A stretch of 64,000 bases of DNA from positions 1-64,000 of IMG/VR virus record IMGVR_UViG_3300043446_003193. One strand, written 5' to 3'. The translations under genes and the position numbers were made by a program. Below the pieces are notes generated by a model. The model made no database searches. It had not been told where the DNA came from and saw nothing but the letters and a program-made list of their open reading frames with translations. Shown piece after piece: positions 17,983 to 45,967 of this stretch (position 1 is its first letter; every line of letters starts with the position of its first letter). The DNA is from a virus.

Positions 17983-18054
17983 CGCTTTCCGAGAATTACG
18001 ATATCTCGCCCCCATCGTTAACAGCGATGTGCTCTGCCTCTGAGCTAGGAAAGC
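17983..18054 (-). tRNA. tRNA-Asn(GTT) with atypical 9 nt T-loop
   Basis: rc: GCTTTCCTAGCTCAGAGGCAGAGCACATCGCTGTTAACGATGGGGGCGAGATATCGTAATTCTCGGAAAGCG; the 5' acceptor overlaps the last 3 codons of the HNH gene at 18045..18401. Confidence 0.7.
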
Positions 18055-18401
18055 TTTTGTTTTTCTATTTCATCATGTATTTCCATGTGACAATTACAAC
18101 ATACTAAAATACATTTATCTAATTCTTTTTTCATTTTTTCCCAACTTATACTAGGTCTTGATAAAGAATATTCTTTTTCACTTGGTTCTAAATGATGGAA
18201 TGCTAATGCTCTATTACATTTATCATATCCACATTTTTCACATTTACCACCTTTGTATTCAATCGCTTTGATTTTCATTTTATCTCTACGATTAGATACT
18301 GAAATAGATGCACATTTTTTACATCTATACGCACCATCTACTCTTAATACAAATTCAGTTTTTCCATGTGTTTTACATTCTTTAATTTCTGTCTTATTCA
18401 T
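18045..18401 (-). CDS. HNH endonuclease (Cys-rich, CCNCH)
   Basis: Multiple CxxC pairs and the HNH signature LVCCNCHMEIH; embedded in the tRNA array, 3' end overlapping tRNA-Asn by about 7 nt. Confidence 0.65.
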   Translation of the reverse strand: MNKTEIKECKTHGKTEFVLRVDGAYRCKKCASISVSNRRDKMKIKAIEYKGGKCEKCGYDKCNRALAFHHLEPSEKEYSLSRPSISWEKMKKELDKCILVCCNCHMEIHDEIEKQKLS

Positions 18402-18542: not shown

Positions 18543-18974
18543 AAAACAAAAAACCCCAACTTAATTAAAAGTCAGGGTTTTCCATAAATTATTTAAAATA
18601 GACGTTCCTAACTTTACATACGAATACCACCCCAAATCTGATTCGGTGTACTACAAAGTGTATGTAATGTTAAGTTTTTCATTTTTATTTTTTTTTAAGT
18701 AATTCAATTTCAAAATACGCCATCCAAGTCATGCTCTGGTTATTATCAGCCTCATCAAATTACTTTGTACACAAGCAGAGTTTAGAGGGAGGCGGTAACT
18801 CTTTGTAGTGTACTGCTACTAATCCGGCAATCTTTTATCGTCTCTGATTGCATTTTTATTGTGAAAATCCTCCCTAAAACACTTATTACCAATTTTATTA
18901 TATCGTTCTATCTTTTAGGTCATTTAAACGAACCGACTGTTGAATAAGAAACAGCCAAAAGGTTGACCACGAAA

Positions 18975-19047
18975 GAGCGAATGTGGGAATTGAACCCTAT
19001 CTTCCACCCCGTTAAGAGTGGTGTGCTTCCGTTACACTATATTCACT
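18975..19047 (-). ncRNA. tRNA-like gene with probable 8 nt anticodon loop (CTTAACGG) and weak T-stem: candidate suppressor/frameshift tRNA or pseudogene
   Basis: rc: AGTGAATATAGTGTAACGGAAGCACACCACTCTTAACGGGGTGGAAGATAGGGTTCAATTCCCACATTCGCTC. Acceptor AGTGAAT/ATTCGCT pairs 7/7 (one G-U); D-arm paralogous to the Arg(ACG)/Gln tRNAs. Confidence 0.4.
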
Positions 19048-19954
19048 TAAAATGAGTGAGATTACCTCATTGGGAGTACCAACTTTAGAAAGATTATTTG
19101 TTTCCTTTCCTATCCACTACCTTTTGAGTAGTACCGATACAATGTGGATGATTTGAGACTATCAGTCTTTGAGTTACGTCTTACTCTCTTTATACTCCGC
19201 TTCTTCAAATCTGCCGACCTGATTAAACCTTGCGGGTTTAGAAGTTTTTCCAAAGAATCACAGACCTCTTGCGGAGGTATCGTGGCAAGGAACAGCTCCC
19301 TACTATGTACACACCTTTCGTCCGTAACTGGCAAACACTTATGCTTTTATTTAAATTGAATAATCAAATCCGCATTTGATAAAAGGGTTGGTTTGTAGAT
19401 GGGTTCAGGTAGCGGTTTGCCAACCAGCTCCCTCAACTTTTGGCCGAGAGAATACTGAACTACCCGATGTGTTATCGTCAACACCATTTTTCAAGTCATC
19501 TTCATTAATAGGGATTGGTGTCCCACATTAAAGGTTAGTAACAACACCACTTGTACACCAACATACCTTACGTCCTTTCGGATAGCTTGGTTTTAAGACC
19601 ACTCTTAAATTGAATACCGCAATAGTGTAAAGTGATTAGCCTTACATTTCTTACAGGTATTCTATGGGTTATTCTTATTGTTCTTCCGAACTCAACCGAA
19701 GTATCTACTTACCCCGGTTATTCAAACTCTTCCGATATAGTGTTACCCTTTCGTACAAAGCTCAAATAATATCCCACTTGCATACTTAAGTTATTCTCTC
19801 CTTACGGGGAGAGTAACCGCAGATTGTGTAAACCTAACAATCCACTTTATCCTACTTTCGTAGTTTATTTGACGACCATATGCGGCCGTTGTTTACTATG
19901 TAGAAAAATCTACTATGTAAAATATTTTCAATCTTTTAAAGAACTATTCGTTTT

Positions 19955-19995
19955 AATAAATATAACAATAATTTTTTTTATTACCAAATATTTTT
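19955..19995 (-). promoter_or_regulatory. promoter (copy 1 of 4 in tandem): TTTG, 20 nt spacer, TATATTTA
   Basis: rc reads TTTGGTAATAAAAAAAATTATTGTTATATTTATT. Confidence 0.45.
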
Positions 19996-20060
19996 AAAAC
20001 TTTTTTTGTAAACTTGATAACGAGTATCTTTCATCACCTATTGTTTCTCATTTACTTATG

Positions 20061-20092
20061 TAATATACGATAATTTTTTTAAACTACCAAAT
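20061..20092 (-). promoter_or_regulatory. promoter (tandem copy 2)
   Basis: rc reads TTTGGTAGTTTAAAAAAATTATCGTATATTAC. Confidence 0.5.
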
Positions 20093-20202
20093 ATATTTTC
20101 AAAAAACTTTTAAGATGTTTGGTATCCGGCTTTCTTCCCTATTGGATAGGTCACTCAATCGGTTTTATTATTTGATGGCTTCAACCAATCATCTTAAATG
20201 TA

Positions 20203-20232
20203 AGATACGATAATTTTTTCAAACTACCAAAT
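20203..20232 (-). promoter_or_regulatory. promoter (tandem copy 3)
   Basis: rc reads TTTGGTAGTTTGAAAAAATTATCGTATCTTAC. Confidence 0.5.
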
Positions 20233-20313
20233 CTTTTTTATTTTTTTGTTGAACATTTTCGGCTGTGTTTACTTACACCATTTAATACTTCCTACTTCTG
20301 AACAACTTTGTAA

Positions 20314-20350: not shown

Positions 20351-20424
<74 letters not shown>

Positions 20425-20432
20425 ATATTATG

Positions 20433-20832
20433 TGGAGATGAGGGGATTTGAACCCCTGTCTTACAAAGAACTAATAATACCAGCATATCACACGTTTATT
20501 TCAGTTTCTACTGAAAAAATATTTAATTTAGTTAAAGTGAGTTTAAGGGTTCAAATTAAAAAATAACTCTTCATAACGGAGTCTCACTGTCCTATACTTT
20601 TAGGTGTATTAAACCTTTGTAGACACTTCTGTTACTAGGCGTATGTGTACCGGCCCTATTGTTGTGATTAGGCTGCTACAGCGTAATCAGCACCTACAAA
20701 CGCCATTAAATCGTTGTAAGTCATTGTTGACATTTCGTCATTTATTGTTTTGTACATAGTTTAAAGAGGTATAGTACATATCTCTACGTGTGGTACTACT
20801 ATTTGCATTGCAATCAATTCCATAGCATCCCC
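20433..20832 (-). ncRNA. ssrA: tmRNA (ssrA-like), about 400 nt; candidate tag ORF ...G-A-D-Y-A-V-A-A-stop
   Basis: 3' end rc AGACAGGGGTTCAAATCCCCTCATCTCCACA resembles the tmRNA 3' consensus GGACGGGGGTTCAAATCCCCCCGGCTCCACCA. A 5' GGGGATG about 400 nt upstream (rc of 20826..20832) pairs with 3' CATCTCC. Internal frame GGT GCT GAT TAC GCT GTA GCA GCC TAA encodes an ssrA-like tag. Promoter motif at 20881..20912 gives a ~35 nt leader. Confidence 0.6.
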
Positions 20833-20880
20833 ATTCAAAGAACTACACAATAATTATATATTTTTGTGATTTGAATATCA

Positions 20881-20912
20881 AATATACGACAAATATTCCA
20901 AATTACCAAATA
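20881..20912 (-). promoter_or_regulatory. promoter upstream of tmRNA: TTTG, spacer, TATATTTG
   Basis: rc reads TTTGGTAATTTGGAATATTTGTCGTATATTTGA. Confidence 0.5.
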
Positions 20913-20947: not shown

Positions 20948-21379
20948 TCACTTATATATTAACTTAAATCCTAATGCTTTTGCTACTTTTTGTGATTTTA
21001 TGTTCCAATCATCTATTTCAATCTGTATTTTACCCCTTGTATGTTCCTTTATAACCAAATACAACAAATCTATAACTCCCAGTTTTCTTAAAGATGTAGG
21101 TTTTTTAGAAAATACATTATATAGGTAATATTCAGTATTACTATCTTCCCTTAACCAACAATAACAAAATGGATTTTCGTTTTTATATCCAACAAACATT
21201 TTTTCACCTTTTTGGATTCTATTCATAGCTTCTCCAACATCAAACATCCCATCCCAAACTATTTCTGAATTAAACAAATCTATACATTTTTGTATTTCGT
21301 TTTGATCAGTTGTTTCCTTTATTTGTATATCCGTTTTTCTATCAACCAATTCCGAATGATTTAATAAAAACTCTTTCAT
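20948..21379 (-). CDS. hypothetical protein (143 aa), possibly GNAT-like
   Basis: ORF track; weak resemblance only. Confidence 0.4.
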   Translation of the reverse strand: MKEFLLNHSELVDRKTDIQIKETTDQNEIQKCIDLFNSEIVWDGMFDVGEAMNRIQKGEKMFVGYKNENPFCYCWLREDSNTEYYLYNVFSKKPTSLRKLGVIDLLYLVIKEHTRGKIQIEIDDWNIKSQKVAKALGFKLIYK

Positions 21380-22110
21380 TATAAAAATGTTTTTACTGAT
21401 TTTGTAATATCAAACCTGTCGTAAATTTTATTGTATTTTTCAATAAAATTATCGGTTAGTTTTAAATTACATTCAAAGTGTTGACTTGAATTTATCTTTT
21501 CCAATTTAAAATCTATTCCCAATTTATCACTCACCCATTCTTCCATTTCGGACATCTTATTAAAATCAAACCATTTTATTTTAGGATTATGATTGTGATA
21601 TGCAGAATGTGGTAACAATAATACACCAAGTATTCTTTTCAAATAATCATTATCGGCTGTAAGTCCGAATCGGTTTATAAACTCCGTTACAGTTTTATCT
21701 ATTTCATCTCTATCATTAATACTATATACATCATTTGAATTATAAAATAAAATATCATTTTCATTCAATTCTTTCATAATATGGAAAGAATGTATATCAC
21801 CCGACATATACACTTCATCTAAACAATGTTTCCACATAGAAATAAATCTTTCATGTCTATTCCTGTTTACTGCAATTATATCATAGTTGTAACCAAATTT
21901 TTCTTCTAAAAATACTATGGATTCATGTCCATGCACTAACATATCGGCAATATCTTCATTATTTATATTTGGATCGTAAACAAATTCCTTATTATCCAAT
22001 CTAGGTGTTATATGGTTTATAGAAATTCCTCTTTTGATACAAGAAATTACAAATGATGTTGAAGCACATCGCGGTAAATTAATATAAATAAATTTATTAC
22101 CAACTAACAT
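21379..22110 (-). CDS. putative sulfotransferase-family protein
   Basis: N-terminal INLPRCASTSF resembles the PAPS-binding 5'-PSB loop of sulfotransferase families; moderate. Confidence 0.4.
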   Translation of the reverse strand: MLVGNKFIYINLPRCASTSFVISCIKRGISINHITPRLDNKEFVYDPNINNEDIADMLVHGHESIVFLEEKFGYNYDIIAVNRNRHERFISMWKHCLDEVYMSGDIHSFHIMKELNENDILFYNSNDVYSINDRDEIDKTVTEFINRFGLTADNDYLKRILGVLLLPHSAYHNHNPKIKWFDFNKMSEMEEWVSDKLGIDFKLEKINSSQHFECNLKLTDNFIEKYNKIYDRFDITKSVKTFL

Positions 22111-28922: not shown

Positions 28923-30123
28923 AATTACCTTTTGATGGAAATCTAGTCCATCCATTAGACCATATTGGTTTGGATAGTGTTTCCATTTCAGCTTTTGTAT
29001 AAGATACCTCTTTGTTACCTTGTGATAAAGCTTTTGTTTTCATATCTGCTGCAGTAAATACAGTAGAAGTAGATTTGAAGTTTAACAATGGGTCAAATGC
29101 CTGAATTTCATTGTTTTCAAATTTAGAAACCCCATCTTTGTAAGCTTGTGCAGTTTCGTTACTTTCAATTGAAAACCCACCTTTTTGATAACCAATGATT
29201 TTTGAGTTAGTCATTGTAAATTGAGTTGCACGTCTCCATCTTAAACCTAAATTATGGTTTGCTAAAGAAGCTGCATCAAATGGTCCAACTAAAATCATAT
29301 TATCCAATTTAGGATGTGTGAATGGCTGTGCGGTTGTACCTGTTCCATCATTATCACACTCCACACCATTTCCAGCATCACCAGCATCTACGAATTGTGG
29401 GTCTCTCTTTGATACTGAATAAGATACCGAACCTCTATATCCAAAATCAAAATCGTAATCATCATCAGCAGTTGCGTATGCGTATAAGTTTTTAGCGTTT
29501 ACAGTTCCACCAAAGAATTCAAATGCATCATCGTTAGCGTAAACAGTTTGGATATACTCTAAAGTTGTTCCACTACCTACACCACCTAATGTTAATCCAT
29601 TGATTTCAGAGTTTGGCATTGCTGCAATTCCTGCATATTCAATTCTAACATATTTTAGGATACCACTATTATCCAAATCGTTAGTTCCACCATAAGGTCT
29701 ACCAATACCACCTTCAATTGTTGGTTCAGAAGTTCTATTGGTAGTTGCTCTACCTAATATAACTACACCACCCCAATCACCAGGCAATCTTTCACCAACA
29801 GCTTTACCAGATGTAAATACGATTGGTTTTGCTGCAGTTCCTTCTGCGATTATTTGTGCACCTCTTTCAATAATTAATGCACCTTTCTCAGCGATATCGG
29901 ATACGATTGTTGTACCTGGCTGAATGATAAGTTTTGCACCATCAATTACATAAACATATCCTTTTAAGGTCCATGTTTTATCTGATGTTAAAGTTGTTGT
30001 TGTGTTAATGTTACCACTCAAAATTGTTGATGATGGTACATTTACAGGAATATCAGTTCCACCTAATTCTTTTTTGCAACTGAATAATCCCAATACTAAA
30101 ATAATTCCTAATAGTTTTTTCAT
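28921..30123 (-). CDS. lipoprotein (400 aa), beta-rich; possible right-handed beta-helix
   Basis: Lipobox LGLFSC; immediately downstream of the TonB-dependent-receptor-like gene with a 4 nt overlap. Confidence 0.55.
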   Translation of the reverse strand: MKKLLGIILVLGLFSCKKELGGTDIPVNVPSSTILSGNINTTTTLTSDKTWTLKGYVYVIDGAKLIIQPGTTIVSDIAEKGALIIERGAQIIAEGTAAKPIVFTSGKAVGERLPGDWGGVVILGRATTNRTSEPTIEGGIGRPYGGTNDLDNSGILKYVRIEYAGIAAMPNSEINGLTLGGVGSGTTLEYIQTVYANDDAFEFFGGTVNAKNLYAYATADDDYDFDFGYRGSVSYSVSKRDPQFVDAGDAGNGVECDNDGTGTTAQPFTHPKLDNMILVGPFDAASLANHNLGLRWRRATQFTMTNSKIIGYQKGGFSIESNETAQAYKDGVSKFENNEIQAFDPLLNFKSTSTVFTAADMKTKALSQGNKEVSYTKAEMETLSKPIWSNGWTRFPSKGN

Positions 30124-32372
30124 AAATTCAAATTTAATGTTAATGAAATTGTTTGTTCGTTGTTTGTTTTTATAAGATTTCTCTTTGTTTGTAACTTTTG
30201 ATAATAGATTGATGGTTGCGCAAATACATCGCCTATTGCCAATTTTATTTCCCCTTTATTTAATTTATGTAAAAGAGTTATATCCAATACATCTCTGCTG
30301 TTTTCAAAAATGTCTGGATAACCCTGAAATCCTATTGCTGATATTCTATCACCTACTCTATTGTAAGTTATGTTAATTGTATTTTTCTTTTTGTGAATAT
30401 TAAATCCACTATTTAATACATAATTTGATTGTCCCTGTAATTGTCTTTTAACTCCTTTAACATTTACTTCAGAATTCATCACAGAAGCGTTTGTGTAAAC
30501 ATCAAACCAATCATTTAATTTTTTACGAAATTCCAATTCAACACCATAAAGATATGCGTTATTGGGATTTGAATAAGTTAATAATAGATTAGATGGAACT
30601 GAACCATCTGCTACTATTTGCTCAATTGGTTTTATAAAGTTTTTACCAAAAAAAGATACTGAAATATTTTCTCCCGCGTTTGGATATAATTCCCATTTCA
30701 AATCTAAATTGTATATGTCAGATTTTTCCAATTTAGGATTACCCAATAATTGTGCATTTCTTACAAAATCATAATAAGCAAAATTAGCTACTTCTCTAAA
30801 CTCAGGTCTTGCTAATGTTTTACTTAATGAAAATCTATATTTTGTTTTTTCTAAATTGTAAGAAAGATTTAGTGATGGTAATACATCCAAATATTCTCTA
30901 TTAACTTTAACTTTACTTCCACTAAAATCTGCAGTAGATACATCAAATAGATTATATTCAGTTCTAACGCCTGTATTTAATTTCCATAAACCAAATTCTT
31001 TGTCCAACATTACATACCCACTACCTAAATCAAAATCAGCAGTATATTTGTCTGTGTTGTTTGTTATCTCATCTAACATATCAGTTGAAAGATAACGAAA
31101 TATTCTTGCATTAAATCCTCTAATCTTTTTTAAGTATCCACCACCAATCTTAATATCACCAAACGATTTATTAACATTACCATTAAAACTATTTTCATCC
31201 ATTACACTCCAAAAACGATATGTATCTCTCCATGCAGTTGTATATGGTTCGTTTACTCCTAATGATTTTGTAATTGGATTAACTCTATAATCAGGTTGTT
31301 CTCTGAATATAAAATTGTATCCTAAATTAAAATCCCAAGTTTTAAGTTTACCATCAAATTGAGAATTAACTACAACATTGTTTATATGGTTAGATGAATT
31401 ACTATGAACATTTTGAACATTATCATAGTTTTCACCATTTCTATTCATATAAGAATCATCGGCTTGATAGTTCACCAATGTTTTCCAACTATATCGGTTC
31501 TCACCTAAATAAGTTAAATTCAATAAACCATTTGCGGAAAATCTTTTTGAGAATAAAGTATCTCTATAATCGTATGCTAATTCAGTTGAAGATTGATAAT
31601 CTATTCTATCTATATAATTCAGTCCATAAGAATTTCTAATTGTTGAACTGAATAAAGCGTTGAATTTGTTTTTCTTTACACCAAATGATAGGCCACCATT
31701 TAAGTTTGGAGATGATGTAAACCCTTCTATGATTGGATTACTTAATTGTTTTGTGTATAACCTCTTATCACCATTACTACTAATACGATATCCGTAAGTA
31801 GATGGGAATGTGGAAGGGAATTCAGTAGCTTGAACTAACTTAAAATCTTTAAGAGATGAAACTGAGCCCCAACCACTTCCCAATGAGATATTAAAAAAGT
31901 TATCGGATACTTCTTTTGTTGAAACTTGCACCAATCCACCACTCCAATCGCCAGGTAGATTTGCCGATGCCGATTTAGATACTATAATATTATCAATTAA
32001 TGCCGTTGGAATTAAATCAAAAGAAAATGCTCTCTTATCAGGTTCAGTTGATGGTAGAAGGGTTTTGTTTAACATAGCAGAATTATAACGGTCTGCTAAT
32101 CCTCTTACTAATACAAACTTATCGTTTTGTATAGTAACACCACTTACTCTTTTAAGTGCATCCCCAACATTTCTATCAGGTGTTTTTTTAATAAAATCAA
32201 TGGATACACCATCCGAAACTACTGATGCGTTACGAATGGTTGATATTACAGCTACTTCAGTAGATTTTTTACCTGCTGAACGGACTGTAACCGTTGATAA
32301 TTGTTTGGAAAATAATGTGTCTTGGGAATATGTTACAAATGGAAGTAACAATAACAATAAAAAAATCCTCAT
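30120..32372 (-). CDS. TonB-dependent-receptor-like outer membrane protein (750 aa)
   Basis: Signal peptide; TonB-box-like STVTV; plug motifs DALKRVSGVTIQ...FVLVRGL...RYN; beta-rich C-terminus. Confidence 0.65.
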   Translation of the reverse strand: MRIFLLLLLLPFVTYSQDTLFSKQLSTVTVRSAGKKSTEVAVISTIRNASVVSDGVSIDFIKKTPDRNVGDALKRVSGVTIQNDKFVLVRGLADRYNSAMLNKTLLPSTEPDKRAFSFDLIPTALIDNIIVSKSASANLPGDWSGGLVQVSTKEVSDNFFNISLGSGWGSVSSLKDFKLVQATEFPSTFPSTYGYRISSNGDKRLYTKQLSNPIIEGFTSSPNLNGGLSFGVKKNKFNALFSSTIRNSYGLNYIDRIDYQSSTELAYDYRDTLFSKRFSANGLLNLTYLGENRYSWKTLVNYQADDSYMNRNGENYDNVQNVHSNSSNHINNVVVNSQFDGKLKTWDFNLGYNFIFREQPDYRVNPITKSLGVNEPYTTAWRDTYRFWSVMDENSFNGNVNKSFGDIKIGGGYLKKIRGFNARIFRYLSTDMLDEITNNTDKYTADFDLGSGYVMLDKEFGLWKLNTGVRTEYNLFDVSTADFSGSKVKVNREYLDVLPSLNLSYNLEKTKYRFSLSKTLARPEFREVANFAYYDFVRNAQLLGNPKLEKSDIYNLDLKWELYPNAGENISVSFFGKNFIKPIEQIVADGSVPSNLLLTYSNPNNAYLYGVELEFRKKLNDWFDVYTNASVMNSEVNVKGVKRQLQGQSNYVLNSGFNIHKKKNTINITYNRVGDRISAIGFQGYPDIFENSRDVLDITLLHKLNKGEIKLAIGDVFAQPSIYYQKLQTKRNLIKTNNEQTISLTLNLNL

Positions 32373-34122: not shown

Positions 34123-34467
34123 TTAATTTATTGTTATTTTAGTTTTTCCAATTTCTTTGTTACTCTCGTCCGTTAGGTATAAATATAAACTTTTTTGTGA
34201 TAATGATTTAGTATATATTTTTTTTGTGTTATCTCCCACAATTCCAGTAAATTTTTCCTTTGTTATTACCTGCGTTTGTGTTGAATCCATTAAAGTAAGT
34301 ATATATTTACCTGCTGATGTAAGTTTAATTTGTATATCTTGTCCGTCTTTAACCACTACTTCCGATTTTGAAAATATATCGGTTGTTGTTGGTTGTGGTG
34401 TTGGTATAACTTCTACTTTTCTACAAGCTACCAAACTTAAAAATAATATGAATAGTAATTTTTTCAT
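34123..34467 (-). CDS. small lipoprotein (paralog of 33753..34121)
   Basis: MKKLLFILFLSLVAC lipobox. Confidence 0.5.
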   Translation of the reverse strand: MKKLLFILFLSLVACRKVEVIPTPQPTTTDIFSKSEVVVKDGQDIQIKLTSAGKYILTLMDSTQTQVITKEKFTGIVGDNTKKIYTKSLSQKSLYLYLTDESNKEIGKTKITIN

Positions 34468-37127
34468 TATTGTATTTTTACTCCTAATGATTTTCCATCT
34501 TTATTAACTGCTTCCGAGTTACCCATGCTCACCAATCCCAATCCACCATTCAATTTTTGTGTAGTAGTGAATAGAACTTTATAAGTTGCTGATGTAATTT
34601 GTGAACCATCGGTATTTAAAGAACCCACATTAATAAAAGTTCCTTTGTTTGCGGAATAGTTAGTTGGTGAACCATTTACGATATATTCCGTTTTATTATA
34701 TTTTAACAAAGAGTTATCATAGTTTAATTGGAATTGAGTTCCTACTATGTTGTTATCTCCTGGGTTAAATACGATTTCTACATATACACTATCACCACTC
34801 AATTCAGTCATTATACTTGCATTCATTGGAATACTTACACTTGTGGATTTTATTCTTTCACCAAAGTTTGCTGACATATTTGTTATACCATTTGCCGGCG
34901 GTGTTGCTGAATGTGATAAGTTTACATCACCTTTCCAAGTTACTGCTAAATTGTATGAATAGTTTGTTTTTCCTTCTAATAAACTAAAACTATATTCCTT
35001 TCCTAAATAAGATGGGAATTGTTGCCAATTAGATTTTCCAATAGTTCCGTATGTAGAGTCCAACACAATTTTCATAGTGCTATCCAAAACATACTTATTT
35101 ACTAAATCTCTTGCACCAGTTAGATATTGTAACAATCTAAAGCAATCTCTTTCATCAAATACATTATTACCATCTACGTCTGCGTTTTTGAATTGAATAC
35201 CATATCCAAATTGTGTTCCACTTCCACCACCAAACAAACCACCTGCTTCTGAATATTCTTTGAATGCTAAATAAACATCCGATACAGTCACAATACTATT
35301 ATAAAGTGTTTTAAGTTGTGTAGAGTCATAGTCTTGGAATACAAATTTGTGTTGTTTGTATGTACCTTGTTGTGTAAGTGTAATTGTACTTTGGAAAGCG
35401 TAATCCGTATTCCAATTATTTACATTTCTAATGTATGAATTTGATGCTGAAGTTCCATCTGTTATTTTTGTTAGTGGTGATGGGACTGTGTATATTGCCC
35501 AACCATTTGCATCATGTGAAGTATATGTCATAGGGCCATCATATGCATCAAATATTTTTGTATGTGTGATTTTGGTAGGGTCAATACTACCAACTTGTCT
35601 CATATCAATTAATAATCTACTTTTACCACTACCCAACCAACTTGCGTTTGGATTTGTATAAGACCATTCAACTTGACCCGGTGTAATTGTTGCTTTATAT
35701 GCAGTTGGATTGGCAACAAATTGATAACTCAATCCCCACGCACCCCACACATCCGATGTTACTCCGTTTTGTGTTGTTGATGGATAATCGTTTTGCCCTT
35801 CAACTATTTTAATGTAAACTTCTTTTGTTTGTCCGGCAGTTACTATTCCTGCATGCACCGCTGCTTTTGGAATATATGAGTCGTTAGTGTATATGTTTGT
35901 TCCCCAAATTGCACCACCACCAGTGTTACCTGTTATGGTCATTTTATATATCTTACCAATATCACTTTCACTATATTGAGTCATATCATTTGCTGCTGCT
36001 ATTGATATTGCAGATGAAAATACCTTTGCCGTATCTAATTGAGTTGATAGAGTTACCCTTCCCACTCCATTTAATGCCACATTTGAATTTGCAGTCCAAG
36101 CTGATGTTGCATCATTTCTTTTATGTAATGCTGCTGAAAATTTAGTTTCATCAATATTACCACCAAAGTTAATTGTAAATTGTGATTTTAAATTATTGTT
36201 TACACCATTATAATGCACCACACTATTATTATAAAAATCAGTAAAAGTTTGGTCATCAGGATTACTCCAAGTTCCAAACTCAATTACATATCCACCCAAT
36301 CCACCAGGGAACGCCGTTGCTTCGGGTCCAAAATCATTCCATTGTGAACCATTCCATTTTGTTACAACATAATCCTCACCAGGTCCCCAGTTGTTTGGTT
36401 CACCACTTGCCCAGTTATTATATTGCCCTGTTTGATTTGTTGAATTTATTCTTACGACAGTTCCATTTTCAGGTCCTGCATCAATTACAAATCTACCTTC
36501 GGTTACATTATCCGTAAGTGCGAATATAATATTATTCCCAGGTACATTGTTTACAACAAAGTTATCTTCATCCGATGATGTGATTGTCATTAAATAACCC
36601 GTTTGTCCTTTGAATGATTGTTGAGTACAATAGGTTTTAAGATTATTATATGCAGTTACAGAAGTTCCACTAAATGCGGTTACCCCGGTAAACCCACTCA
36701 TAGGTCTATAAAAGTGTCCGTTTGTTGGTAAGTAATAATATCCCGTTGGGTTGACAGTTGCTGATACTGAAATACTAATATCACCCGCTGTTCCCGTTGT
36801 GTTTATTTTCATTGATGCTAATACATTGTTAATATTAGCCATTGTTCCGGTGAATGAAATACGAGTTTTATTACCACTCATTGTGTAACCGGTTGATGCA
36901 GTTACGCCGGATGTTGTTGAGAAATAAAATGTAGTTCCGCTTGGTGCTGTGGGTAAACCAATTGCACAAAGTAAAGTTGCAGTAGAGTTGAACCCACTCA
37001 ATGTAAATCCACTTGCATCTTGTCCTGATGTATTGACAGTAAATTCTTTAGGGTCTGGTGCATTTACCTGCTGACCAAACCCTAAAAATGATATAAATAA
37101 GAATAGTGTAACTAATAATTTTTTCAT
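34467..37127 (-). CDS. very large secreted beta-rich protein (886 aa); adhesin, lectin or receptor-binding candidate
   Basis: Signal peptide ending FGQ; Thr/Ser/Gly/Asn-rich beta composition. Confidence 0.55.
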   Translation of the reverse strand: MKKLLVTLFLFISFLGFGQQVNAPDPKEFTVNTSGQDASGFTLSGFNSTATLLCAIGLPTAPSGTTFYFSTTSGVTASTGYTMSGNKTRISFTGTMANINNVLASMKINTTGTAGDISISVSATVNPTGYYYLPTNGHFYRPMSGFTGVTAFSGTSVTAYNNLKTYCTQQSFKGQTGYLMTITSSDEDNFVVNNVPGNNIIFALTDNVTEGRFVIDAGPENGTVVRINSTNQTGQYNNWASGEPNNWGPGEDYVVTKWNGSQWNDFGPEATAFPGGLGGYVIEFGTWSNPDDQTFTDFYNNSVVHYNGVNNNLKSQFTINFGGNIDETKFSAALHKRNDATSAWTANSNVALNGVGRVTLSTQLDTAKVFSSAISIAAANDMTQYSESDIGKIYKMTITGNTGGGAIWGTNIYTNDSYIPKAAVHAGIVTAGQTKEVYIKIVEGQNDYPSTTQNGVTSDVWGAWGLSYQFVANPTAYKATITPGQVEWSYTNPNASWLGSGKSRLLIDMRQVGSIDPTKITHTKIFDAYDGPMTYTSHDANGWAIYTVPSPLTKITDGTSASNSYIRNVNNWNTDYAFQSTITLTQQGTYKQHKFVFQDYDSTQLKTLYNSIVTVSDVYLAFKEYSEAGGLFGGGSGTQFGYGIQFKNADVDGNNVFDERDCFRLLQYLTGARDLVNKYVLDSTMKIVLDSTYGTIGKSNWQQFPSYLGKEYSFSLLEGKTNYSYNLAVTWKGDVNLSHSATPPANGITNMSANFGERIKSTSVSIPMNASIMTELSGDSVYVEIVFNPGDNNIVGTQFQLNYDNSLLKYNKTEYIVNGSPTNYSANKGTFINVGSLNTDGSQITSATYKVLFTTTQKLNGGLGLVSMGNSEAVNKDGKSLGVKIQ

Positions 37128-42685: not shown

Positions 42686-45600
42686 TTATTTACCGAAAAT
42701 GTATCTGATACCAAATTGTGCTGTCCACACATCAAATACTGATGAGTTTTTGCTATAAGTATCTTTCAACAATACAGTTGAGCCATCTAACAATCTTTGT
42801 GTTGCAAATTTGTAAACTGGCTCGTTATTAACTACTGATGAATAAGTTAAAATTGCCGGATTTGTAAATCTTTGAGATACACCCCAATCTTCATTAACCA
42901 TATTACCAAAGTTAAGAATATCAAAACGTAATTGAATTGTGTTTCTATCGCCCTTAACATTTACATAGAAATCTTGAACTACTGAAAGGTCAAATCTATG
43001 TAACCAAGGTAAGAATGAACCATTACGTTCTGCGTACTGTCCTTTACGAGTTGATAGGTAATCATCTTGATTAATGTAATTCCAAAATGCTGCTTGTTGT
43101 TCAGCTTCGGTGTAAGTTTTTGTACCTACAACCAATGGTGCGAATTTAACTTCTGTCATTGATTTTGGAACATATATTAATTCATTATTATTAACTCTAT
43201 CTCCGTTCAAATCACCTGCAACAAAGTAAGATGTACTACCACTTCTTTGTCCAACATATCCTATTGTTACTGAAGTTGCTGCACCGTATCCTTTCTTACC
43301 ATATTCAATTCTATATCCCAATAAACCTACTGCTCTATCAGGAACTACGAAATCTGAATTTGAAAGAATTGGGTTGTTGTTACCATTGATACTTCTAATT
43401 GATTGCCATGTTCCACTTGCGATAGAACCTGCACTCATAAAGTCTTCAGCGTTTGATTTAGTGTAAGCAATACTACCGAAGAAACCTTTTGAATATGGTT
43501 TTTCTAATTTAACTGAAAGTGCATTGTAGAATGACTCATCGTTATTAGTTAAAACCGCACCCATAGATACATTATCGTTTACTCTTACACCAGCATCAGT
43601 TCTTGCATACAATGCTCTTTGGTCTGCTCCACTAAATTTACCAATTGGTGCATCCAAGTTTGCGTTGTAGTAATGAACTGCATTAAGTGTTTTGTTGTAT
43701 AAATACTCTACACTACCTACTAAACCTAATGGTAATTTTTGGTCTACTGCTAAATTAGTTTTCCAAACTTGTGGAAACTTATAGTTAGGGTCAGTAAATG
43801 CTAAATCAAATGTTGAAGGAAGGGTTGGAGTAGAAGGGATGAAATATTTTTCAGGGTTAGCAGTAAAACCATATTGAGATGCTGCTGCACCACTTACATC
43901 AATAAATCCTGTCAATACACCATTGTTACCAACTTGGTTAGATACGAATACATACGGAGGTCTACCGGTGAATACACCTGTACCACCTCTAACTTGTGTT
44001 TTCTTATCGTTCTTAACATCCCAGTTGAAACCAAATCTTGGTTCCCACAATAATTGTGTTTTAGGTAAAGTTGCTGTATTGAATTTCTCACCACCTGCAA
44101 ATGTCATAGCAGTTACTGCTTTATTTTCCAATGCTGTGTTTTCAAATCCAATAATAGCAGTTCTTAAACCAAATGTTAATTTTAAGTTTTGAAGTGCTTG
44201 GTATTCATCTTGTCCGTATAAATCCAATCTTTGAGTTTTCAACACTTGCATTGGGTCAACTGCCCCAGGTAATGCTGAATATCTGTATTGAAATCTATAT
44301 GGTGCCGTTGTAGATGGTTTACCACCATTTGCCAAACTCTCATTTGCTGCTTTATAGAAGTCAGCCAAAGAGTTGAAAATATAAACACCATTTGATGCAG
44401 GATAGAATAAGTTGTTAGATTGGTATTTCTCATAATTGAAACCTAATGTGAAAGTGTGCTTATCTGCATACTTTGTTAAGTTATCGGTAATGTGGAAAGT
44501 ATTGTAATCTAATTTATTTCCTGGAGTGAATGGGTCAAAACCTGTTGAAATATAGTTTACTCTTGCAGAAGTTCCATCAGCAATATCAATTGTTGGGAAC
44601 ACACCTGTCATATATGCTCTATCTTCAATTTGTTTATCATAACCAACGATTAAGTTGTTATGTAATGTGTTTGAAAATTTAGAGTTTAATTCAACAACTG
44701 CTGAACGAGTATTATCCATAATGATATAACCACTATTCTTATAACTCATAGAATTAAAGATAGTAGTTCTATTACCTGCACCTGCTGATTGAGAGTTAGA
44801 AATGTTAATCTCTGCATCAGAATTGTGGTGAACATAACGAGCAGTTAATTTATGCTTATCGTTGATGTTCCAGTCTACTCTTACTAAGAATTTCTTACTT
44901 GCATTTGTATTAGAATATCCTTCCCATGGGCCAGTTACATAATTGAATTTATCTTTCATAAAATCAGAAAGAGTTTTCAAATCATCATACTTAACTCTTG
45001 TTGGTTGAGCACCACCCAACGGAGAACCTGCAGATGTCCAAGTTGTACCTGGCTCTGTTTTCTCTAATTGTTCGTAGTTACCAAAAATGAATAATTTGTT
45101 TTTGATAATTGGTGCACCTAAACGGAAACCAGTAACTTTCTCATCAAATTTAGATGCGGTTACAGGAACTCCTGCTGCTGAATTACCAACATAACGAGAA
45201 CTATTATCTCTTTGTGTTTGATAATAAGAACCTTCAACTTTGTTTGTACCTGAACGTGTAACTGCATTGATACCTGCGCCAGTAAACCCACTCTGACGAA
45301 TATCAAATGGAGCAACATTCACTTGTAATTGTTCAATCGCATCTAATGATATTGCAGATGAACCTGTTCTACCACCAGCTTGTGCCGAACTACCCAATCC
45401 AAAATTGTTATTGAATTGAGAACCATCAATTGTGAAGTTATTCAAACGAGAGTCTTGTGCTCCGAATGAAGAACCATCACCCAATGGATTGTACTTTGTA
45501 ATTCCGTTGATTGTTCTTGCTCCTGTAATAGGAATAGAAGTCAATTCTCTTCTACTAAATACTTGTGCAGCACCAGTTCTATCCTTAGAGAATAGATTGT

Positions 45601-45967
45601 TTTTGGTTCCTGTCACAACTACATCTTTCAAAGAAGTTGCTTCACTTAATAACTTAAAGTCTACGTTTGATGTAACACCTAATTGAGTGTTTACATCTTT
45701 CTCTTCTCCTTTTCTAAATCCTACAAACGAAGCATGGATTGTATATGGTCCACCTACTCTTACGGCAGGTAAAACATAAACACCATTTTTGTTTGTAACC
45801 GATTTGTACTCTGTACCTGTCGGTGTATGTGTAGCGTGAATTGTTGCACCTACTAACACCTCATTTTTTTCGTTCTTAACAACACCAGAAATAGTAGAAG
45901 TGGTAACTTGACCAAATCCAATTAAAACTGATACTGAAAGGAACAACGATAGAATCGCTTTTTTCAT
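42686..45967 (-). CDS. TonB-dependent receptor with N-terminal carboxypeptidase-regulatory-like domain (SusC/RagA-type architecture, 1093 aa)
   Basis: Signal peptide ending FGQ; CarbD-like ISGVVKNEKNEVLVGATI; plug DVVVTG...RRELTSIPITGARTINGITKYNPLG; long beta-barrel. Confidence 0.75.
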   Translation of the reverse strand: MKKAILSLFLSVSVLIGFGQVTTSTISGVVKNEKNEVLVGATIHATHTPTGTEYKSVTNKNGVYVLPAVRVGGPYTIHASFVGFRKGEEKDVNTQLGVTSNVDFKLLSEATSLKDVVVTGTKNNLFSKDRTGAAQVFSRRELTSIPITGARTINGITKYNPLGDGSSFGAQDSRLNNFTIDGSQFNNNFGLGSSAQAGGRTGSSAISLDAIEQLQVNVAPFDIRQSGFTGAGINAVTRSGTNKVEGSYYQTQRDNSSRYVGNSAAGVPVTASKFDEKVTGFRLGAPIIKNKLFIFGNYEQLEKTEPGTTWTSAGSPLGGAQPTRVKYDDLKTLSDFMKDKFNYVTGPWEGYSNTNASKKFLVRVDWNINDKHKLTARYVHHNSDAEINISNSQSAGAGNRTTIFNSMSYKNSGYIIMDNTRSAVVELNSKFSNTLHNNLIVGYDKQIEDRAYMTGVFPTIDIADGTSARVNYISTGFDPFTPGNKLDYNTFHITDNLTKYADKHTFTLGFNYEKYQSNNLFYPASNGVYIFNSLADFYKAANESLANGGKPSTTAPYRFQYRYSALPGAVDPMQVLKTQRLDLYGQDEYQALQNLKLTFGLRTAIIGFENTALENKAVTAMTFAGGEKFNTATLPKTQLLWEPRFGFNWDVKNDKKTQVRGGTGVFTGRPPYVFVSNQVGNNGVLTGFIDVSGAAASQYGFTANPEKYFIPSTPTLPSTFDLAFTDPNYKFPQVWKTNLAVDQKLPLGLVGSVEYLYNKTLNAVHYYNANLDAPIGKFSGADQRALYARTDAGVRVNDNVSMGAVLTNNDESFYNALSVKLEKPYSKGFFGSIAYTKSNAEDFMSAGSIASGTWQSIRSINGNNNPILSNSDFVVPDRAVGLLGYRIEYGKKGYGAATSVTIGYVGQRSGSTSYFVAGDLNGDRVNNNELIYVPKSMTEVKFAPLVVGTKTYTEAEQQAAFWNYINQDDYLSTRKGQYAERNGSFLPWLHRFDLSVVQDFYVNVKGDRNTIQLRFDILNFGNMVNEDWGVSQRFTNPAILTYSSVVNNEPVYKFATQRLLDGSTVLLKDTYSKNSSVFDVWTAQFGIRYIFGK

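Follow-up and report, generated by a model that had tools for sequence, protein, structure and literature searches.

A tRNA-like element on the minus strand of a 64,000-nucleotide (nt) stretch of viral DNA (positions 1 to 64,000 of IMG/VR record IMGVR_UViG_3300043446_003193; the whole stretch is referred to below as the window) was found to follow a full-length GOLLD RNA directly. The element is homologous to tRNA-Gly(UCC)-like genes that occupy the same fixed position behind GOLLD in other phage contigs, its stems covary with theirs, the anticodon loop of that family has been lost from it, and a second, canonical tRNA-Gly(UCC) is encoded in the same window. With about even confidence, we read it as a diverged, decoding-incompetent member of this GOLLD-linked family that would probably serve as a co-transcribed processing handle for GOLLD. 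To our knowledge, GOLLD is among the largest non-coding RNAs (ncRNAs) of bacteria and phages, and its function has been unknown since 2009. Published work describes it as a component of phage tRNA arrays that assembles into a 14-mer cage and whose linker can harbour a tRNA or pseudo-tRNA (PMC12286853, PMC12990946, PMC6582537, PMC9569102). The GOLLD context proved decisive for interpretation; in a preliminary description made without it, the element had been taken for a candidate frameshift or nonsense suppressor or a pseudogene, of which the degenerate-tRNA part came close to the evidence and the suppressor part found no support.

The structural features listed in that description were all present, on the minus strand from 19047 to 18975. 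ARAGORN reported a gene of undetermined type ('tRNA-???') with a 2-nt anticodon, 'aa', which corresponds to a stem of 6 base pairs (bp) and a 6-nt loop. The Rfam tRNA model (RF00005) matched 19046..18976 with 31.6 bits (E = 0.012 for the whole window and 0.0002 for a 1.1-kb sub-region), which is above the gathering score of 29 and the lowest among the 19 Rfam tRNA matches of the window; in this alignment, the anticodon contains four bases instead of the three in the model, and the T stem is shortened and mismatched. The minimum-energy fold was a cloverleaf (-20.0 kcal/mol, z = -2.3) with an anticodon arm of 7 bp and a UAAC tetraloop. By the ARAGORN call, the Rfam score, the fold z-score and the existence of positional homologues in other phage contigs, the element exceeds chance.

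Drawn as a cloverleaf of 71 nt, the element has an acceptor of 6-7 bp, a D stem of 4 bp, an anticodon stem of 5 bp with an 8-nt loop and a T stem of 3 bp. The acceptor had been described as a perfect 7-bp pairing; AGUGAAU and AUUCGCU do form seven pairs, but one of them is G.U, so the stem is not strictly perfect, and in the register common to the homologues (G1 = 19046) it consists of six pairs and an A7.C mismatch. The D arm, GUGU-AACGGAA-GCAC, resembles those of the tRNA-Arg(ACG) and tRNA-Gln of the window, as had been noticed. The 8-nt loop CUUAACGG (19016..19009) lies inside CCACU/GGUGG (five pairs, one of them G.U), and the three drawings of this arm, with loops of 8, 6 and 4 nt, gave predicted energies of -16.6, -19.0 and -20.0 kcal/mol, respectively. 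The T stem contains the three good pairs already reported, all of them G-C, plus U.C and A.A mismatches. None of the three drawings yields the canonical loop of 7 nt, which has U33 and purine 37, and a canonical 5-bp T stem stacked on a 7-bp acceptor is also absent. The residues of a canonical tRNA elbow are kept, namely U8, A14, the D loop AACGGAA and the T loop UUCAAUU, which is itself canonical.

The full-length GOLLD 3' domain lies on the strand of the element and ends 6 nt upstream of it (coordinates of all features are collected in Table 1). Similarity detected by blastn to the contigs L385, L005, L394 and L374 (L numbers designate other viral contigs throughout) covers the window from about 20250 to 19020. 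The order on the minus strand is a promoter-like site, a transfer-messenger RNA (tmRNA), tRNA-Met, GOLLD, the element, ~430 nt of conserved non-coding sequence and an array of 17 tRNAs with an HNH gene; the order tmRNA, tRNA-Met, GOLLD is kept in at least eight other contigs. A promoter scan between GOLLD and the element found none. The tag encoded by the phage tmRNA is DEMSTMTYNDLMAFVGADYAVAA.

Pattern searches revealed tRNA-Gly(UCC)-like genes located 6-9 nt after P27, the terminal hairpin of GOLLD, on the same strand and behind a U/A-rich spacer. These genes share a common body, with U8-A9, the D arm GUGU-AAYGRNA-GCAC, A26, a 4-nt variable loop ARGA and U as discriminator. In an alignment of 13 sequences of the family, 94% of the cells were paired and both-sided changes were present at nine pairs; none of 500 shuffles reached the observed score, and controls with slid partners dropped to 35-54% paired. 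The tertiary pair 19-56 also covaries, being G-C in nine sequences and A-U in four, so that some members without G18-G19 have an A19-U56 pair instead; the D loop AACGAUA occurs together with the T loop UUUAAUU, and AAYGGUA with UUCRAUU. This tertiary covariation indicates that the family RNAs fold as L-shaped tRNAs.

Of the 12 aligned members other than the window element, 11 have the anticodon loop C-N-UCCA-G and the remaining one (L410) has AUUCCA. Such a loop would be unusual for a decoder, as judged from its sequence, because pairing is possible between C32 and G38 and because U, C and G all occur at position 33. An A5.C68 mismatch is kept in 10 of the 13 members, and the Rfam tRNA scores of the family range from 38 to 48 bits, compared to 50-74 bits for array tRNAs. 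A canonical T4-type tRNA-Gly(UCC), with the loop CUUCCAA, is also present in the same genome wherever the locus extends far enough, which makes the GOLLD-linked copy redundant for decoding.

Several variants of these genes were observed. The members in L116 (9863-9956), L359 and L385 (5385-5479) carry a D-loop insertion of ~23 nt that forms a small hairpin, GGG-UUCG-CCC in the first two and GGG-UUCU-CCC in L385, and ARAGORN misreads members of this kind as tRNA-Val(CAC) or assigns them a 4-nt anticodon. In L401 (528-676), two tandem Gly-like copies follow GOLLD immediately, both with G33 (loop CGUCCAG), and a canonical tRNA-Gly(UCC) is found further along the array. In L045 (~1010-1120), L009 and L055, the first gene is followed by a second tRNA-like gene with a long D-loop insertion, whose anticodon arm is UCCAA-UUUUUCGA-UUGGA in L045 (8 nt, or 6 bp plus 6 nt) and has CUUUUCA in L009 and L055. 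These second genes are another lineage of odd tRNA-shaped RNAs beside GOLLD.

The element of the window occupies the position of this family on the same strand, with GOLLD ending at 19053 and the element starting at 19046/19047, and the shared body was recognised in it in the 13-sequence alignment. Its identity to the members in L394 and L406 is 74-77%, depending on the alignment. The alignment score was 27 against GOLLD-linked Gly-like tRNAs, at most 16 against other relatives and at most 13 against any tRNA of its own array. Therefore, as the element is closer to foreign GOLLD-linked genes than to its own array, it is a positional homologue and not a local paralogue. Compared to L394 and L406, compensatory changes have occurred in the acceptor (4:69 from G-C to A-U, 6:67 from A-U to U-A, and 5:68 from A.C to A-U), in the anticodon stem (29:41 from C-G to A-U) and in the T stem (51:63 and 52:62 from A-U to G-C). 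With respect to acceptor identity for glycine, G1-C72 and G3-C70 are kept and 2:71 is U.G, as in L222, where the bacterial set has C2-G71, plus U73. The family loop C-N-UCCA-G is absent from the window copy, in which CUUCCAG has become CUUAACGG; in addition, the two outer T-stem positions are unpaired, and 1 nt has been deleted at the junction of the T and acceptor stems. It is this combination of a lost UCC loop, two broken T-stem pairs and a 1-nt deletion that brings the 'pseudogene' half of the earlier alternative close to the evidence.

The modules found behind closely related GOLLD RNAs were then compared. The 3' domain of the window's GOLLD shares 96% identity with its counterpart in L086 and 95% with the one in L385, and synteny among the three extends over the entire region from the tmRNA to the array, whereas the module directly after GOLLD is completely different in each of them. 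In L086 (and L143), it is a 48-nt minihelix with a 7-bp acceptor and a 6-bp T arm (UUUUUAC ... UAUUGG-UUCGAUU-CCAAUA-GUAAAAA), which is also its minimum-energy fold. In L385, which is outside the 13-sequence alignment, it is a 95-nt version with the D-loop hairpin insertion and the 8-nt loop CAUUCCAG. L009 and L055 have a paired acceptor with a stacked, covarying hairpin of 5 bp and 7 nt that lacks the T-loop sequence. All four of the other distinct GOLLD RNAs matched by a GOLLD-only sub-family pattern keep a tRNA, a tRNA-like fold or a perfectly paired minihelix of acceptor and T arm. The acceptor/T-arm half thus persists across the different forms, and the anticodon half is dispensable and free to vary.

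For a broader view of GOLLD 3' ends, viral contigs were scanned with a GOLLD-only motif, which yielded 119 loci. Among the 87 distinct 3' ends with enough downstream sequence, 16 were followed by a tRNA that, as called by ARAGORN, starts no more than 30 nt from the terminal loop, compared to ~0.8 expected from the tRNA density of those loci. The adjoining tRNAs were mostly tRNA-Met(CAU), the others being Thr, Asp and Cys, as well as that of L045 with a 6-nt loop; in 10 of those loci, the adjoining tRNA was the sole tRNA found. Several GOLLD+tRNA units are immediately followed by a terminator, and additional loci contain tRNA-like folds missed by ARAGORN. A terminator replaced the tRNA at 45 of 101 GOLLD ends, as counted with a strict rule in a retrieval-biased set of loci. 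The GOLLD 3' end is thus regularly adjoined within a few nt by a tRNA, a Gly-like module or a minihelix, and otherwise by a terminator. In the metagenome pattern scan, most of the matches listed were chance matches. An apparent enrichment of anticodon loops other than 7 nt near GOLLD (2/24 versus 3/388, Fisher p = 0.03) was discarded as too weak, as it includes the window element and ARAGORN miscalls variants.

The top half of a tRNA, formed by the acceptor, the T arm and the D/T elbow, is recognised by RNase P, RNase Z and the CCA-adding enzyme. According to the preferred reading, the tmRNA, tRNA-Met, GOLLD and the element would probably be transcribed as one ncRNA unit, from which RNase P would free GOLLD by cutting at the 5' border of the element, thereby fixing the 3' end of GOLLD. 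The likeliest job of the element would then be the punctuation of a polycistronic ncRNA transcript. Its anticodon loop would have been freed from constraint, and the 8-nt form looks like drift and not like an adaptation to quadruplet decoding; we infer that the element is neither aminoacylated nor used in decoding. Punctuation is the most economical model because the part that is retained is the target of RNases P and Z and because the alternative at this site is a terminator. Of the parts expected in a processing element, the window copy has an acceptor of 6-7 bp and a canonical T loop with a T stem of three pairs, and sister loci have a clean minihelix.

Several points weigh against this interpretation. 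Both the co-transcription and the cleavage by RNase P are inferred. The 3-pair T stem, together with the deletion at the junction, could impair recognition by RNase P. Most GOLLD RNAs have no 3' tRNA, and truncated remnants stand at the position of the element in other loci, such as L108. No near-identical relative of the element was found by which current purifying selection on this copy could be gauged. The compensatory changes may predate a loss of function, and, as most members keep UCCA, the family might serve a purpose that is no longer fulfilled by the window copy.

The main rival is an inert pseudogene, a once-functional GOLLD-linked tRNA-Gly(UCC) in decay, with the 3' end of GOLLD being formed independently of it; we give it a minor but real share of the probability. 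Three independent defects set the element apart from the family (the loop, the T stem and the junction deletion), its Rfam score of 31.6 bits is the lowest not only of the window tRNAs but also of the family members, and the canonical tRNA-Gly(UCC) would make it dispensable. The cut-down remnants at the same position elsewhere, of which L108 is an example, indicate that simple decay does occur there. Against it, all the sampled close relatives keep something tRNA-shaped at the site, the acceptor, anticodon and inner T stems stay paired through compensatory changes, and the residues of the D/T elbow are intact.

It is improbable, in our view, that the module is a permanent appendage of GOLLD, covalently attached on or inside the 14-mer cage, where it might serve to bring in tRNA-binding factors, conceivably EF-Tu, the ribosome, the CCA-adding enzyme or modification enzymes. 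The short and fixed spacing of 6-9 nt to P27 would suit such an arrangement, as would the traits of the family that are unlike those of a decoder (C32-G38, a variable position 33 next to a conserved UCCA, A5.C68 in 10/13 and the 4-nt variable loop), and linker-embedded tRNAs and a cage model with a 'covalently linked tRNA' are already in the literature (PMC12286853, PMC12990946). However, no complement of the loop was found in GOLLD, the conserved UCCA is missing from the window copy, and one module can stand in for another behind near-identical GOLLD RNAs, which speaks against a close structural partnership. The first of these points comes from a search for kissing loops, in which complements of CGUUAA (window) and CUGGA(AG) (family) were sought in up to 1.4 kb of upstream GOLLD sequence and no conserved complement appeared. 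In a wider and similarly improbable form of the idea, the tRNA-shaped module would be a dedicated 3' part of GOLLD RNAs, not an ordinary decoder even when well formed, and either attached to the cage or released in step with it; the well-formed members show the traits just listed and share their genome with a second, canonical tRNA-Gly(UCC). If true, such a module would link the cage to the tRNA-handling machinery or to the ribosome, and in the variant found in the window only the top half would still matter.

A working decoder, either a quadruplet suppressor (e.g. UAAC reading GUUA) or a triplet reader with UAA or AAC, is very improbable. In its favour, the arm can legitimately be drawn with an 8-nt loop, neither the cloverleaf nor the elbow is disrupted, and in E. 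coli a one-base expansion of the anticodon loop can make quadruplet decoders of tRNAs from all isoacceptor classes (PMC9094753). Nevertheless, the loop proposed earlier as that of a +1 frameshift suppressor is not a one-base insertion into an intact tRNA, as it differs from the CUUCCAG of its homologues at several positions. C35 and C36, the main identity elements for glycyl-tRNA synthetase, are gone, and the T stem and the T/acceptor junction are defective. Behind near-identical GOLLD RNAs, one sister element lacks the anticodon arm entirely and another has a different 8-nt loop, and a canonical tRNA-Gly(UCC) is present in the window. The nonsense-suppressor alternative has no support either, since CUUAACGG read in its two possible 7-nt frames has the anticodon UAA (Leu) or AAC (Val), position 33 would have to be C for UUA, and no frame with U33 reads a stop codon. 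As for recoding, the standard code gives a coverage of 85.6% by open reading frames (ORFs) of at least 100 codons over the 64-kb window, which includes ~7 kb of RNA genes, and there was no sign of recoding in this global coverage; GUUA and UUAA are too common in gene overlaps at 32% GC to be informative without homologous proteins. Reassignment of a stop codon was likewise discarded, as read-through of TAG or TGA adds little and read-through of TAA just fuses genes at this GC content. Relative to the 8-nt form, those with 6 bp/6 nt and 7 bp/4 nt gain 2.4-3.4 kcal/mol in predicted stability; this is a weak point against decoding, and loop closure was dropped as an argument, since the canonical family loops are predicted to close too. 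As far as the sequence allows a judgement, the suppressor reading has no support.

Table 1. Features of the GOLLD locus and of its surroundings in the window.
Feature	Position	Strand	Basis and remarks
tRNA-like element	18975..19047	minus	ARAGORN tRNA-???, Rfam tRNA 31.6 bits, fold, homology to the GOLLD-linked Gly-like family
Non-canonical anticodon loop CUUAACGG	19009..19016	minus	8 nt, closable to 6 or 4 nt; family consensus here C-N-UCCA-G
A/U spacer AUUUUA[A], between the GOLLD P27 terminal hairpin and the element	19047..19052	minus	homologues have UUUUAUAA or UUUAUAA
GOLLD RNA, conserved 3' domain	19053..19467	minus	Rfam RF02032, 267.3 bits, model positions 1-416 of 416
GOLLD variable 5' domain and linker	19468..20250	minus	extent by homology to GOLLD-containing contigs
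tRNA-Met(CAU), directly upstream of GOLLD	20351..20424	minus	ARAGORN/Rfam; same order in syntenic contigs
Phage-encoded tmRNA, first gene of the putative ncRNA operon	20432..20832	minus	ARAGORN, Rfam RF00023
Promoter-like site TTGATA-17-TATAAT, 21 nt upstream of the tmRNA	20853..20881	minus	11/12 matches; consensus match only
Hairpin 17 nt past the element (X1)	18933..18958	minus	weak terminator score; conserved structural block in relatives
Canonical T4-type tRNA-Gly(UCC), loop CUUCCAA	17900..17972	minus	ARAGORN
HNH endonuclease ORF, 118 amino acids, inside the tRNA array	18045-18401	minus	PHROG 2255, E = 2e-28
Large ORFs of the window (examples)	42686-45967, 34467-37127, 30120-32372		

Beyond the hairpin X1, three further conserved blocks were recognised on the minus strand between the element and the array. 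Block X2 (18772-18885), ~115 nt long, is conserved and non-coding; three helices are predicted in it, and some covariation is seen (GGGAGG/CCUCCC versus GGGGAA/UUCCCC). It is present in the syntenic contigs L086, L143, L126, L374, L116 and L205 and has no Rfam match. Block X3 (18697-18770), of ~75 nt, is very conserved, with a 12-bp covarying outer stem around GAGGCU..UAUUAACCAGAGCAUGACUUGGAUGGCGUAUUUUGAA, and has no Rfam match either; it follows the tRNA-like element directly in L385 and L394. Block X4 (18543-18690) is also conserved and could encode a peptide of ~22 amino acids, MKNLTLHTLCSTPNQIWGGIRM, or fold into an ACAUAC/GUAUGU hairpin. Just ahead of tRNA-Tyr, X4 is followed by a strong terminator, AAACCCUGAC...GUUGGGGUUUUUU.

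HNH genes, GOLLD and tRNA clusters co-occur in mycobacteria (PMC9569102), and the HNH ORF within the tRNA array of the window matches this reported co-occurrence. When ten proteins of the window were compared with PHROGs, the only matches were the HNH endonuclease and a weak cobalamin-type one, and eight of the ten, including the largest (1093, 886 and 750 amino acids), had no PHROG family at E <= 1e-5. The 32% GC, the related contigs of 200-240 kb and the scarcity of proteins with a PHROG suggest a poorly characterised jumbo phage. A relative was also sought through the neighbouring protein of 243 amino acids (21379-22110), whose sole match was in L414 (49% identity), a contig with no tRNA or GOLLD in 12.7 kb. 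A search of GenBank phages with 2.5 kb around the element returned only scattered tRNA and tmRNA matches and a 67% GOLLD match in a 642-kb uncultured phage.

The punctuation reading provides a testable model for the maturation of GOLLD from tRNA-array transcripts, and the natural variants are available for asking whether the tRNA-shaped cargo is functionally tied to the cage. It also carries a warning for annotation, as odd anticodon loops beside GOLLD should not be read as suppressor tRNAs.

The element has much in common with the tRNAs and pseudo-tRNAs already associated with GOLLD (PMC12286853, PMC12990946, PMC6582537, PMC5737381), which include a phage tRNA array, a nearby HNH gene, an adjoining tRNA-Met and a low-scoring GOLLD-linked pseudo-tRNA. 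However, the known ones lie in the internal linker, whereas the window element is fixed 6-9 nt past the 3' terminal hairpin and is part of a separate Gly(UCC)-like family in which the top half is conserved and the anticodon domain varies. The proximity of GOLLD to tRNAs and the linker-embedded tRNAs are therefore already known. The 3'-appended module is apparently new, as the searchable literature, which does not cover two key GOLLD papers, yielded no account of a tRNA-Gly-like or minihelix module fixed behind the 3' end and conserved in its top half.

The classical +1 suppressors sufD, sufA6 and sufJ have 8-nt loops in otherwise intact tRNAs, with a single base inserted in or next to the anticodon and the identity elements kept. 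Quadruplet-decoding tRNAs have also been engineered (PMC9094753, PMC8481270). The arm of the element can be drawn in the same way, as a 5-bp stem with an 8-nt loop, but its loop is changed at several positions, the Gly anticodon is lost, and the T stem and the junction are defective. Among tRNA-shaped RNAs outside normal decoding, the tRNA-like domain of the bacterial Y RNA YrlA and the non-proteinogenic tRNA-Gly(UCC) of Staphylococcus are comparable, the latter being likewise a second tRNA-Gly(UCC); the element differs from YrlA in having neither a Ro-binding stem nor an Rfam YrlA match, and from the Staphylococcus tRNA in having no link to cell-wall synthesis genes.

Minihelices of acceptor and T arm are substrates of RNase P and of the CCA-adding enzyme. 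The modules of L086 and L143 are reduced to exactly such a minihelix, and the window copy keeps the same parts, although it still has D and anticodon arms and only three Watson-Crick pairs in the T stem. Parallels to the proposed role are offered by mascRNA, a substrate of RNase P at the 3' end of MALAT1, and by the tRNA punctuation of mitochondrial polycistronic transcripts. As in those systems, a tRNA-shaped fold abuts the 3' end of a long structured ncRNA and conservation is concentrated on the acceptor/T-arm half; in contrast to them, cleavage of the element is a postulated step, the system is a bacterial or phage one, and the origin of the module is a recognisable tRNA-Gly gene family.

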